Program-made: the position numbers
Shown: positions 10,901-64,000 of the stretch, one piece after another
Position numbering within the stretch: the stretch's first letter is position 1
How the letters are laid out: each line of letters opens with the position of its first letter
Assembly (NCBI GenBank): GCA_951406725.2
Contig: OX597816.1
Location: 71,982,001-72,046,000 of the forward strand
Length of the DNA: 64,000 nucleotides
From: Octopus vulgaris
Lineage: Eukaryota
Direction: 5' to 3'

Positions 10901-13900
10901 TTTTTTGTGCACAAAGATGTTGTTAAACCTCCATTTACAGCACTGTATGCAGTTCCTTTCCATTTTCTTTCACGCACAGATAAATTTTTCACTTTAGACT
11001 TTAATGGTCGTAAAGACACTATATCAGTGGATAGACTAAAAAAGGCTTTCATAGAGAAAACTGTCCCTGTTCCCACAGCAGATGACACACTCACACACAC
11101 AGCATTACAAATATGGCCCACACAACCCCCTTCACATTCCATGACTACCATTGGAATCGATCAAGTACCAAACAAGGATTCTGGATTATTTTTCCAGTTT
11201 TTTTTTACTTAATTTTTGAGAGCGGTTGAGTTCAATTTTAGTATTCTCATTTGTGAGTACAGTCAAGTTTATTTCAGATATTCTCATTTTAAAAATCACA
11301 TCCGGCTAATTGTTGAGAGGAGGTTGGTGTTGCCTTGGCGGAGGTTTGCGCTCTCTGAGTGCTCTTGTTATTATTATTATTAAGGTAGCAAGCTGGCAGA
11401 ATCGTTAGTGCCCTGGATGAAATGCTTGGCAGTATTTTGCCTGTCGCTACATTCTGAGTTTAAATTCCACCGGGGTCCACTTTGCCTTTCATCCTTTTGT
11501 GGTTGATAAATTAAGTACCACTTAAACACTGGGGTCAATGTAATCAACTCATCCCCTCCCTCAAAATTGCTTCCCTTGTGGCCAAATTTGAGACCATTAT
11601 TAATATTACTATTATTATTATTATTATAGTGAGGTGACAGAATCATTAACATGCTGGGTGAAATGCTTCGCAGTATTTCTTCTGTCTTCACATTCTGAGT
11701 TCAAATTCCACTGAGGCCAACTGCCTTTCATCCTTTCAGGGCTGATAAAATAAGTACCAGTTGAGTACTGGGGTCGATGTAATTGACTGTCCCCCTCCCC
11801 CAAATTTCAGGCCTTATGCCTATTGTAGAAAGGATTATCATTATTATTATTATTAACTCTTTACTGTTCAGATTATTCTATCAAACATAATGCCTATTGA
11901 TTCCCATTGATTTGAATTAATATTGCATTATTTCATATCTTCAAGATCTTGATGGTGTAATTACTTGATGTAGAATAACATTGTGGGGTAGGTGTGAGAG
12001 CCTGGATCTGGTCAGTTTGAACATAAAACAGATTAGCTATTTTGGCCGGATGTGGCCAGTTTAAATACTAAAGGGTTAAAGAGCAAAGCACGTGGTGCAG
12101 TGGTTAGAGCATTGGGATCACAATCAGCGGTAGTGAGTTTGATTCCCAGACCAGGCTGTCTGGTGTGTTCTTGAGCAAGACATTTTATTTCACGTTGCTG
12201 CAGTTTACTCAGCTGTAGAAATTGGTTGTGATGTCCCTGGTGCCAAGCTGTATCGGCCCCTTTGCCTTTCCATTGGATAACATCGGTGGCATGGAGAGGG
12301 GAGGCTGGTATGCATGGGTGGCTGCTGGTCTTTCTTAAACAACCATGCCCGGCCTTGTCCCTCGGAGGGGAACTTTCTAGGTGCAATTTCATGGTCATTC
12401 ATGACTGAAGGGGTTCTTTACTCTTTTTTTGAGTATTATTAAAGTTGCTAACTGCCAGAATTGTTAGCATGCTGGGCAAAATTCTTACCGGCATTTCTTC
12501 CAGTTTTATGTTCCGAATTCAAATACCGCCGGGGTCAGCTTTGTCTTTGATCCTTTTGGGGGTTGATGAAATAAATAACAGTCAGATAGTGAGGGAAGGG
12601 TTGATGGAATTGACAACCATCACAATTTCAGGCTTTGTGCCTATAGTAGAATGCATAGCTGTTAATTGTGTATTTCAAATATTGCATTTTTTCCTCAAAA
12701 CCTCCAAGCAACAAAGATGTTGTTGGTATTCTTGGATTATTGTCCACAAGAACAAGAAATATTTCTGAAAGAGTCTAATGAGTATTAACACAATGGGAAG
12801 ACAGTTTCAAACAAGAATCACATCAAGAATGCTTCAGCTGTGACTTCCAATAGAACTACATAAAATAATGTGAATCTTCATATTTCTTTCCAGGAATGAA
12901 AAATGCCAAGTGCTGGAGGCGTGTGCCCTCCAATAATTACACCTTTACATAACCGGCCTACAACAAACTCAACAACAACCAAAATTAATATATCTACTTT
13001 GATTCAGTTAAGTTCAGGTGAGTTAATGATTTCTTTTTCTTCCCTCTGGCTGGGTAGCCATGTATCTCCTCTACAGCAGCATACCTGTTTCTGACCTCAT
13101 TCTTGATCACTCTCTCTCTCTCCTTCCCTTGCTCTTCCTGCTGGTTAGGTAACCAAATATCTCCTTTACAGTAACACACCCATTTCTGTCCTCTTTCTTG
13201 TTACTCCTCTCTCCCTATCTCTCTCTTCCCCCCCCCCCTTTCTCTCTCTGGTCAGCAAATCACGTACTCCTTTACAGCAAGACACCTGTTTCTGCTTCTC
13301 TATCTCTATGTCACACTCTAACCTTTCATCATCTGACACAAGATTATCTCCGATGCCCCCCCCCCTCTCAAAAATTCCTTGTCTCACAAGTTACTTGGTG
13401 ACCCTGCTGGTGCCATGTAAAAAGCCTCCAGTCCACACTCTGCATGGATGTTGGCATTTGGAAGGGCATCCAGCTGTAAAAACCATGTCAAAACTTACCT
13501 TACCTGTGCTGGTGCCACATAAAAAGCACTCATTCCACTCTGCAGGTTTGTTGGTGTTAGGAAGGGCATCCAGCTATAAAAATCTTACCAAAACTGTTTC
13601 AAATTTTGGCACAGGGCCAATAATTTTGGGGAGGGGGTAAGTTGAGTACATTGATCCCCAGTGTTCAGCTGGTACTTATTTTATCAACCCCAAAAGGATA
13701 AAAGGCAAAGTTGACCTTGACTGGATTTGAACTCAGAACATAAAGAGCTAGAAGAAATATCTAAATATTGACAAGTCCTTTTTACTATGCATACAAGGCC
13801 TGAAATTTTGGGGTAGGTGCTAATCAGTTATGATTTCATTGACTCTAAAGGATGAAAATCCAAGTCAACCTTGACCAAATTTAGACTCAGGCCATAAAAA

Positions 13901-61600: not shown

Positions 61601-64000
61601 TATTCATTTTATTTAACCTCTAAAATACTTAATATTTTCTCAATTAAAATGCAAAATAACATTATTCGTTTTATTTAACCTCTAAAATACTTAATATTTT
61701 CTCAATTTAAAATGCAAAATAATATTCATTTTATTTAGCCTCTAAAATACTTAATATTTTCTCAAGTAAAATACAAAATAATATTTGTTTTATTTAACCT
61801 CTAAAATACTTAATATTTTCTTAAGCAAAATAATATTTGTTTTATTTAGCCTCTAAAATACTTAATATTTTCTCAATTAAAATGCAAAATAATATTTGTT
61901 TTATTTAACCTCTAAAATACTTAATATTTTCTTAAGCAAAATAATATTCGTTTTATTTAGCCTCTAAAATACTTAATATTTTCTCAAGTAAAATGCAAAA
62001 TAATATTCATTTTATTTAGCCTCTAAAATACTTAATATTTTCTCAATTAAAATGCAAAATAATATTCATTTTATTTAGCCTCTAAAATACTTAATATTTT
62101 CTCAAGTAAAATGCAAAATAATATTTGTTTTATTTAACTTCTAAAATACTTAATATTTTCTCAATTAAAATGCAAAATAATATTTGTTTTATTTAGCCTC
62201 TAAAATACTTAATATTTTCTCAATTAAATGCTAAATAACAATATTCATTTTATTTAACCTCTAAAATACTTAATATTTTCTCAAGTAAAATGCAAAATAA
62301 TATTTGTTTTATTTAACTTCTAAAATACTTAATATTTTCTCAATTAAAATGCAAAATAATATTTGTTTTATTTAGCCTCTAAAATACTTAATATTTTCAC
62401 GATTTAAAATGCAAAATAACAATATTTGTTTTATTTAACCTCTAAAATACTCTTATATTCCAGGAAGATCCTACAGTGTTTCCTTATAATCCATTTGACC
62501 CTGAAAGTGATGCAAAAATACTACAGAAAGCTATGAAGGGCTTTGGTAAGCACTTAATGAACTTTATAACTTAAATGAATCTGTTTCCATAATGACAAGT
62601 ATTGGGTTCTTTTACTTGGAATAGGGCAGGATTTTTTTTTATTAGATGGAGGTCAGTTTTTGACAAGGTGCACACATACAATTGTTTCAATGTACAGGAG
62701 AGTGTTCAAATAGGCTGAGGGAAACCAAGCAAGGATTCGTAACAGGAAGGGATTCTGACCATAGAATATTGCCTCAATAACATCTCATCTCATACATTTC
62801 ATCAGAGAAGATGTGGATATAAAAACAAGAATTCTGTTTTCTATCATTTAGTTCCTTTGCTTAACCTTAGTTCTTTAAAATAGCGATTTCTTAGAATTAC
62901 TGTATTTTGATGTGTATAAGAAACCCTTTTTTGTCAAAATTTAGGTTAAAAAAATTTGGGAGTTTCTCATACATGGATAGTATTATAATCCTGTGCAAAA
63001 CCTTTTTTCCAAATTTTAAACACCCCAAAATTAAGTAAAAATACAGTATATCAACTGTGATACTTGTTGGTTTATTTGTGTCCTCATAACTTAGCAGTTT
63101 GGCTTCATTAAACCCCTCAAGGTGGTGCCCCAGCATGGTAGCAGTGTAAAGACTGAAATAAATAAAAGTCAAAATGTAAAAGATATACCCTCACCACCAC
63201 CACTGAAGATGTACGACAAAGAGAATTTCAGCAGGATTTGAATTCAGAGGCTTAATAACTAAATATTGTTTTTTGACTTAAAATATTGTTATGGAGGCAA
63301 GAAAAAGTAAACGAACAGAAAACATTATGCCCCTTGTTCCCCTTTGTTGGAATTGAACCGGCGCTCCAGTTGTTTAGGACAAAGGAAATACCATTGTCCT
63401 GTCAAAGACCACGATTATTAATGGTCCTAGGCATTGATCTATAGTCCCCACATAGTCACGGAAAGTTAAAAAAAAAAAAATGCTACCCGTTATAAATACG
63501 GCTAGCATTAAGTTAGTTAGTCAGTTGGTAAGGAGCAGTCAGCGAGAAACCGTGAGAGGGTTGTGTGAGCGGAGTGGACAAGGGAGTGAGTTCGAGATGG
63601 TGGAGTCGGCGAGAGGCAGCAACAAAGATGACAGGCGTGGTCTAGAGAGAGACACAGTGAGTGTGAGAGAGAGAGGTAGTAAGGAAGATGACAGTGAAGG
63701 GGCAGAGAGAGACATAAAGAAGCCGGACTGTTATAGTGGAAGTTTTGTGATGTCAGGGGGTGTTGCAGGCGAGGAATATGCGGTAATGTTTTATTTGTGT
63801 TTTGAATTTCGATGTTTAAATGATTGAAAAAGAAAGAGAAAGAAAAAAAAGCGTGTTGTGGGCTGTTTTCAAAAGAAAAGAAAAGGAAGAAAAGAAAAAA
63901 GAACCTGGAAATGTTTTTGTTTTAAAAAGCAGACGGAACTTTGTGAACTGTTGTGTTAAAAAGAAAAGGGGGAGGAGAGTAGAGCTATAAGAGACTGCTG

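Follow-up and report, generated by a model that had tools for sequence, protein, structure and literature searches.

Annexins usually consist of a conserved core and a short, variable N-terminal tail that sets the choice of partner. DZANK1 is a poorly understood ciliary, dynein-associated protein. In the sections of PMC4617706 that bear on partners and location, DZANK1 proteins are described as cytoplasmic and ciliary, NINL is mapped to the DZANK1 zinc-finger region (residues 244-317), and DZANK1 pull-downs are reported to contain DYNLL1 and DYNLL2 only. A DZANK1 dimer together with an LC8 dimer has further been placed, by AlphaFold-guided fitting, on the A-tubule in the transition zone of cilia, according to the relevant part of bioRxiv 10.64898/2026.06.11.731632. 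Here, we describe a stretch of 64,000 nt from Octopus vulgaris (contig OX597816.1, positions 71,982,001 to 72,046,000, forward strand; hereafter the window), which, as read from its sequence, carries the 5' three-quarters of a single protein-coding gene, a spiralian "head-annexin" with a DZANK1-like head ahead of its annexin cores. A gene of this composition had been proposed in a preliminary description of the same DNA.

The gene was delineated with the O. sinensis annexin A6 isoform X1 (P0004, 1127 amino acids) as tblastn query against the window, which yielded 18 collinear plus-strand pieces corresponding to residues 1-840 of the query. The resulting gene spans positions 12903-62545 of the + strand in 18 exons. 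Upon junction refinement, all 17 junctions proved canonical (15 GT-AG and two GC-AG) and their flanking residues agree with P0004; the GC donors follow positions 28690 (exon 6) and 57506 (exon 16), and the residues flanking both agree with the public model. Phase bookkeeping found 18 of 18 exons open in the phased frame, with 2611 coding bases in total, just as the preliminary description had joined 18 exons without frameshift or stop, and the two junctions that it had singled out, 33491>36662 and 37038>40682, both lie on canonical sites after refinement. Window searches were made with single-exon open reading frames (ORFs), and the junction script joined split codons only.

The peptides of 17 of the 18 exons recur, letter for letter, in a public O. 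vulgaris model, P0003 ("annexin A6-like isoform X1"). The exception is exon 9, which is not whole in P0003 because this model uses the first exon 9 donor; its first 49 residues are present there, and the window therefore agrees with the O. vulgaris models. Residues 841-1127 of P0004 (287 residues, the rest of core 2) have no match in the window. The remainder of the second annexin core is located beyond the 3' end of the window, whose annexin part comprises core 1, the inter-core linker and only the first exon of core 2. The exons are as follows.

Exon 1, 12903..13017, + strand: start codon, N-terminus MPSAGG..PPIITPL and first head-domain strand (residues 1-38), with an in-frame stop directly upstream of the start.
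Exon 2, 15220..15373, + strand: core of the Fn3_assoc / CHB_HEX_C_1 beta-sandwich.
Exon 3, 22403..22544, + strand: last part of the beta-sandwich, which reaches about residue 110, followed by the first part of the disordered linker.
Exon 4, 24818..24962, + strand: acidic linker, predicted to be disordered; missing from the O. bimaculoides model P0006.
Exon 5, 26899..27062, + strand: linker; contains PTNYSGTQINMFG at 26928-26966, a near-invariant motif, as well as the QYGFITEQMI segment.
Exon 6, 28498..28690, + strand: TIGEIR helix, proline-rich spacer and start of the DZANK1-type block (..PPLQDVSVGQG); GC donor.
Exon 7, 30226..30329, + strand: two helices of the DZANK1-type block (NLNEQILHIYSHLLKYSK..FRSKVSHPCFGK).
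Exon 8, 33416..33491, + strand: beta-hairpin of the DZANK1-type block (..EDEEDCYRITVIMEKPG).
Exon 9, 36662..37038, + strand: Lys/Pro-rich linker with the 93-bp tandem duplication and three in-phase donors.
Exon 10, 40682..40766, + strand: starts with AQEGT, the conserved entry to annexin core 1; start of repeat 1.
Exon 11, 44248..44342, + strand: annexin repeat 1 (Pfam Annexin on the ORF, E 4.5e-10).
Exon 12, 45966..46079, + strand: closes repeat 1 and opens repeat 2 (Pfam Annexin weak, E 0.028).
Exon 13, 48767..48857, + strand: repeat 2, with GLGT at 48767-48778.
Exon 14, 51495..51821, + strand: end of repeat 2 and repeat 3, with KWGT at 51656-51667 (Pfam Annexin, E 1.3e-29).
Exon 15, 54905..55086, + strand: repeat 4, with GLGT at 54964-54975 (Pfam Annexin, E 1.1e-13).
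Exon 16, 57428..57506, + strand: closes core 1 and leads into the inter-core linker; GC donor.
Exon 17, 59415..59500, + strand: inter-core linker.
Exon 18, 62464..62545, + strand: first exon of annexin core 2, ending in phase 1 before GT.

The N-terminus encoded by exon 1 is strongly conserved, M1 being invariant and P2, S3, A4, G5, P10 and I12 invariant or nearly so in 34 aligned proteins. At the other border of the head, the splice phases tie the annexin to the upstream exons. Exon 10 starts in phase 0 and has no Met of its own, since an in-frame stop occurs seven codons upstream with no ATG in between, and exon 9 ends in phase 0 at all three candidate donors (GATATTGAG|GTAAGG, ending at 36810; GAG|GTAAGA, at 36903; GAG|GTAGGA, at 37038), as can be read directly in the window sequence; both observations had been made before and are upheld. 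Six aligned heads from four phyla share a conserved segment across the joint, DPYF..E.E..QEGT; QEGT is invariant among them and is directly preceded by DPYFEMExED in 6 of 6.

Exon 9 is also the variable part of the gene. Its first donor is used by the public isoforms P0002 and P0003 and its last by P0004 and P0005, whereas P0001 skips exons 8 and 9 altogether. The extra donors arise from a 93-bp coding tandem duplication (36761-36934): DPYFEME motifs occur at 36775-36795 and 37003-37023, and a degenerate copy, NPAFEKK, at 36868-36888. Three DIE|GT units are recognized in the window, the middle one with NPAFEKK; P0005 of O. bimaculoides also has three, and P0004 of O. sinensis carries one 31-residue copy fewer than the window. 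Alternative donors and skipping of exons 8-9 vary the length of the tether between head and cores in the annotated isoforms. An FFAT-like reading of DPYFEMETE was not adopted, the upstream flank being basic and not acidic.

The union of head and annexin extends well beyond octopus. A search of longer proteins with the exon 2 ORF returned nine matches, each of which combines Fn3_assoc with Annexin. Their database name is "annexin A6(-like)" for Octopus vulgaris, O. sinensis, Argonauta hians and Littorina saxatilis, and "Annexin" for O. bimaculoides, much as the preliminary description had foreseen for automated annotation. Residues 1-365 of P0004 retrieved 45 proteins, 44 of which combine Fn3_assoc and Annexin; the sole non-annexin match, a bacterial multi-repeat protein (P0045), was dropped. 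Overall, 31 named species share the architecture (4 cephalopods, 10 gastropods, 10 bivalves, 1 chiton, 2 annelids, 2 nemerteans, Lingula and the orthonectid Intoshia); they belong to Mollusca, Annelida, Nemertea, Brachiopoda and Orthonectida. The word "chimeric" in the preliminary description, if taken to mean something local or recent, does not hold: this is an old conserved family of at least five spiralian phyla. Literature searches for DZANK1 or Fn3_assoc with annexin, and for annexins of molluscs and Lophotrochozoa, found no paper describing the architecture in the library covered, consistent with the earlier view that it is uncharacterised.

These data bear on whether we are dealing with one gene at all. 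Predictors could have merged two adjacent genes, a truncated DZANK1 paralogue and an annexin, and the join in octopus is indeed predicted from genomic sequence, while head-only models exist in Lottia (P0046), Aplysia (P0047), Lamellibrachia (P0048) and Babylonia (P0051). Such an artefact is nonetheless scarcely credible, given that the same join appears in 31 named species annotated by different projects, that the splice phases fit and exon 10 is devoid of a start codon, that the joint sequence is conserved between phyla, and that the Lottia and Aplysia head-only models are labelled "partial" by their own sources. Moreover, ten further fusion matches (792-1159 amino acids) are found on contigs of 3079-5164 nt, which barely exceed the coding sequence and are therefore intron-free and presumably transcripts; as such, they provide independent support for one continuous mRNA in these relatives. 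We thus retain the proposal of a single gene in which a DZANK1-like head is spliced to annexin cores. Separately, the 344-residue P0051 of Babylonia areolata is a head-only model distinct from the full fusion that the same species also has (P0026), and may therefore be a paralogue.

We then turned to the origin of the head. As anticipated, Pfam identified Fn3_assoc, CHB_HEX_C_1 and Annexin domains in the exon ORFs (exon 2: Fn3_assoc, E 1e-9; CHB_HEX_C_1, E 1.2e-7) and eight Annexin repeats in P0004. Word-indexed searches with the P0004 head and with a six-species head profile recovered fusions, head-only partials and bacterial CHB_HEX_C proteins, with no DZANK1 among them, and the ESM Atlas gave no usable match for P0004 residues 190-365. 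The failure of the word-indexed searches reflects the sensitivity limit of that tool and not an absence of DZANK1. A head profile (A5) made from five head-only proteins over 380 positions and run against 1.84 billion representatives obtained 1136 matches with E<=1e-3, of which 297 reached E<=1e-10 and 50 reached E<=1e-30. In a search of PDB sequences, the profile also matched the chain 11xu_G1, named DZANK1 (E 5.2e-39), with two collinear stretches at residues 2-147 (independent E 3.9e-28) and 466-525 (independent E 2.4e-7). The DZANK1 matches predicted for the head were therefore missing from the word-indexed search of residues 1-365 and came to light by profile.

Among 146 newly listed matches of this profile, six carry annexin, whereas 57 proteins without annexin match in two collinear stretches, profile positions 3 to ~150 on residues 2 to ~150 and profile positions ~285-365 far downstream. 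Fn3_assoc was found by Pfam in 57/57 of the latter, DZR in 45/57 and Ank_2 in 34/57, some of these proteins being short or partial, and the set therefore displays the DZANK1 architecture; its best member, P0063, adjoins Atlas clusters named DZANK1 (score 0.99). Profile-profile alignment of the six fusion heads with the 57 proteins by hhalign gave probability 100 for the N-terminal domain (E 1.5e-48, 115 columns, 45% identity) and probability 99.3 for the pre-ankyrin block (E 4.2e-20, 79 columns; local run on sliced alignments). Significant profile similarity to DZANK1/Fn3_assoc thus exists for both parts of the head, and the assignments made earlier stand: exons 1-3 encode the DZANK1-type N-terminal Fn3_assoc domain, and exons 6-8, more precisely the end of exon 6 with exons 7 and 8, the block that precedes the ankyrins. 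The Fn3_assoc domain is common to fusion and DZANK1 from residue 2 onwards, and the block SPGxGxW+xQ..H..AHL..F+..EP+MGK follows in the same order, but the C-terminal place is taken by annexin cores in the octopus protein. Judged by these profiles, the Ig-like domain and the small domain of the head are homologous to the DZANK1 N-terminal domain and pre-ankyrin block.

AlphaFold2 modelled the whole of P0004 from 83 alignment rows with a mean predicted local distance difference test (pLDDT) of 79.0 and a predicted template modelling (TM) score of 0.59, in agreement with a model of the Lottia head (mean pLDDT 71.9, 83 alignment rows). In the P0004 model, residues 1-110 fold into a beta-sandwich (pLDDT 79-97), residues 111-206 stay below 50 and disorder extends to about 290, TQI motif included, and a small domain of two helices and a hairpin occupies residues about 292-362 (pLDDT 81-94; helices 307-324 and 326-333, 86-94). 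A disordered linker at 368-442 leads to a short helix in the DPYFEMExED region (residues 441-460, pLDDT 61-66), and residues 461-1127, with pLDDT mostly >90, build two annexin cores. These predicted cores superpose on annexin VI, III, A11 and A4 and, taken singly, reach Foldseek target-normalised TM values of 0.94-0.98 against annexin III, A11, A4 and XII. For two copies of P0004 residues 286-366, complex prediction returned a score of 0.02 and a mark of 0.32, with the fold of the segment itself uncertain and the alignment not used, a result that speaks neither for nor against pairing of the two copies.

The eight annexin repeats of P0004 (PF00191, E 5.7e-191) are arranged as two four-repeat cores joined by a linker. 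In each core, repeats 1, 2 and 4 keep a strict GxGT-38-D/E motif, whereas repeat 3 reads KWGT-38-E. Hence, the type II Ca2+ site attributed earlier to all four repeats of core 1 is confirmed in its strict form for three of them and deviates in the third. The KWGT-type departure from GxGT is usual in annexin repeat 3. With the Ca2+-site motifs kept, the cores are inferred to bind acidic phospholipid membranes with Ca2+. The best solved relatives of exon 14 are annexin VI structures (1m9i, E 9.9e-63; 1avc, E 4.5e-61), and the P0004 model aligns with vertebrate annexin A6 (1avc) over 664 columns at 45% identity (E 2e-50); both proteins have eight repeats in two linked cores with Ca2+-site motifs, but in the octopus type they are preceded by a head that is about 460 residues long and contains two folded domains. 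Among fusion relatives, Pfam counted four repeats, that is, one core, in P0055, P0058 and P0060, and 11 in P0057, a head-annexin of 1288 residues. Core doubling may therefore be an event of this family, independent of vertebrate A6, and the label "annexin A6-like" may wrongly suggest orthology to it.

To place the fusion relative to DZANK1, we computed a maximum-likelihood tree on 195 head columns, which is unrooted and contains 76 of the 102 starting rows, 26 gappy ones (1 fusion and 25 DZANK1-type) having been dropped. All 32 DZANK1-type rows, together with P0067 and P0139, fall on one side of a branch with a Shimodaira-Hasegawa-like approximate likelihood ratio (SH-aLRT) value of 99, and holding the 43 fusion and head-only rows together was not rejected by the approximately unbiased (AU) test (p-AU 0.73). 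P0067 (908 amino acids) shares with the family the MPSAG.. Fn3_assoc head devoid of zinc ribbons and a C-terminal annexin core of four repeats, but retains ankyrin repeats (Ank_2, residues 429-518), which makes it the exception among annexin fusions, as well as the canonical GTQTVGLFYP. By domain content, this single model looks intermediate between DZANK1 and the spiralian head-annexin, which suggests that a DZANK1 paralogue devoid of zinc ribbons first gained an annexin core at its end and lost the ankyrins later. With an unrooted tree and P0067 a single model, this order of events is an inference.

What the fusion has discarded matters for its likely function. Pfam found neither double zinc ribbons (PF12773, DZR) or other zinc-ribbon families nor any Ank family in P0004, P0001, P0009 and P0008 when scanned singly, and the 10 families reported for an alignment of 34 proteins include none of either kind. 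The octopus fusion thus differs from DZANK1 by the lack of both the double zinc ribbons, the part that binds NINL, and the ankyrin repeats, and a role as NINL/dynein adaptor does not follow. Coupling to NINL or dynein through the adaptor head envisaged in the preliminary description is accordingly not implied, since the NINL-binding region is missing and the TQT motif is not clearly kept.

The predicted protein is organized as an Ig-like Fn3_assoc domain (residues 1-110), a disordered linker with NYSGTQIN(V/M)(W/F)G, the small domain, a Lys/Pro-rich linker that ends in DPYFEMExEDxxQEGT, and two annexin cores. As known for the family, the cores would bind acidic phospholipid membranes upon a Ca2+ rise, and by homology the head would serve as a docking or dimerising module of the DZANK1 kind, so that, in this protein, a Ca2+-dependent membrane binder would be connected with a partner of the cytoskeletal or LC8 type and not with NINL. 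We consider it on balance probable that the spiralian head-annexin combines Ca2+-dependent membrane binding by its cores with docking or dimerisation through the DZANK1-derived head, and Ca2+/lipid sensing could in this manner be coupled to ciliary or motor traffic. In a more specific version, which we regard as rather unlikely, the head would dock on microtubule doublets or LC8, and its fusion to the annexin would create a tether, switched by Ca2+, that holds the membrane to the axoneme or centriole at the base of the cilium.

Several points weigh against the explanation that we consider probable. The proposed mechanism rests on homology, and the DZANK1 modules retained have no mapped activity, the only mapped interaction, that with NINL, being in the missing region. 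A fold search of the PDB with the Lottia head model gave no match at E<=0.001, only generic Ig-like sandwiches, and left the small block unmatched. An additional annexin-only transcript may also arise in octopus from a start site in intron 9. The DZANK1 assignment of bioRxiv 10.64898/2026.06.11.731632 is itself model-based. As for LC8, it binds TQT-anchored strands in disordered regions, TQT being the usual anchor; anchors that deviate from it are found as well, and binding fails for many TQT peptides (PMC6607443, in its passages on the anchor). The TQT of DZANK1-type proteins (T in 48, Q in 55 and T in 50 of 57) is placed a median of 37 residues before the block, whereas in fusions PTNYSGTQINVWG is kept (T 32, Q 32 and I 28 of 33) and precedes the block by a median of 96 residues. 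Furthermore, hidden Markov model (HMM) alignment of P0067 puts the DZANK1-type TQT on TVGD(I/L)R of the fusions, with loss of the glutamine, which renders LC8 binding uncertain; such binding by the fusion head is possible. Homology of the fusion TQI to the DZANK1 TQT was not adopted, as the spacing differs and the HMM aligns TQT elsewhere; P0067 and P0139, both zinc-less relatives, carry a degenerate upstream motif in addition to a canonical TQT, which also counts against it.

With the gene taken as one, three other accounts of its head deserve weighing against the docking or dimerising module linked to a partner. The head might mainly dimerise the annexin, directly or via an LC8 dimer at TQI, and so bridge two membranes with no cytoskeletal tether. 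In the annexin A2-S100A10 heterotetramer, a short A2 N-terminal helix binds dimeric S100A10, and the assembly can join membranes to one another or to the cytoskeleton. The functional analogy is that an N-terminal part of an annexin recruits a dimeric partner, but the octopus head is a large multi-domain module of other origin. TQ(I/V) is near-invariant in the fusions (third column I 28 and V 3 of 33) and lies within the segment of pLDDT <50, LC8 being a binder of TQT-anchored strands in disordered regions, with variants of the anchor (PMC6607443, same passages), and DZANK1 is described as a dimer in the cited part of bioRxiv 10.64898/2026.06.11.731632; set against this, the anchor is TQI and not TQT, and even TQT peptides often do not bind LC8 according to those passages of PMC6607443. 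Bridging of two membranes by a purely dimerising head hence appears doubtful. It is unlikelier still that the head or the DPYFEME motif docks on the annexin core and tunes its Ca2+ sensitivity with no partner recruited. The constant position of DPYFEMExED directly before QEGT and the short helix of intermediate confidence at residues 441-460 would fit such a regulator, but two folded domains conserved since before the DZANK1 split exceed the needs of a regulatory tail, and disordered linkers of 70-180 residues separate the head domains from the core. Annexin A1 provides the precedent for an N-terminal segment that regulates the core.

Fn3_assoc/CHB_HEX_C domains are otherwise accessory domains of bacterial glycosidases, which raises the idea of an extracellular protein with a glycan-binding head. 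The Pfam CHB_HEX_C_1 match and the best fold matches of the head model, bacterial glycosidase accessory domains (8ayr_A, E 5.6e-3, and 1qba), speak for it. We nevertheless deem it very improbable, because the MPSAGG.. N-terminus has no hydrophobic signal stretch, none of these fold matches reaches E<=0.001, and the closest domain relatives are DZANK1 proteins (E 1.5e-48), cytoplasmic and ciliary according to the relevant sections of PMC4617706.

The window as a whole is AT-rich and laden with repeats, and contains no N; an Rfam scan of it found no RNA family. Elements noticed outside the exons are listed below.

15449-19524, intron 2: tandem array of a 494-bp unit, 8.2 copies, 99% matches, occupying a large part of the intron.
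About 19570-20080: peptides of the 494-bp array on the opposite strand, the array ending in an inverted partial copy.
30899-31354, + strand, intron 7: incomplete ORF of a DDE_3 transposase of the Tc1/mariner type (Pfam E 2.6e-13).
60974-62459: AT-rich satellite with 24.7 copies of a 59-bp unit; the unit can also be taken as 125 bp.
14553-14839, 27373-27674, 28055-28417, 34530-34876, 37333-37758 and 58118-58380, both strands: example copies of a short interspersed repeat.
32884-33075 and 37466-37723: internal sub-repeats of 65-131 bp (program TRF).
10775-11209 and 42570-42875, + strand: non-exon ORFs with no Pfam match.

The satellite ends four bases before exon 18 (62464), and the branch point and polypyrimidine tract of the intron before this exon must therefore lie inside it. 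The short interspersed repeat is present in many introns, and its translations share strings such as ..LQLDALPNANHSESVVGAF... The two non-exon ORFs may be remnants of the C-terminus of a retroelement pol and of a GIY-YIG (Penelope-like) endonuclease.

The database labels "annexin A6-like" and "hypothetical protein" hide that in a whole superphylum of animals the "tail" of an annexin has become a head, about 460 residues long, which was inherited, by homology, from DZANK1. The fusion keeps two DZANK1 modules without an assigned function and discards two that have one, and it therefore constitutes a natural experiment on the modules kept, linking them to Ca2+-regulated membrane binding. If the ciliary tether proved true, this "Rosetta stone" fusion would imply that the DZANK1 N-terminal domain and pre-ankyrin block act at the membrane-microtubule interface in all animals.

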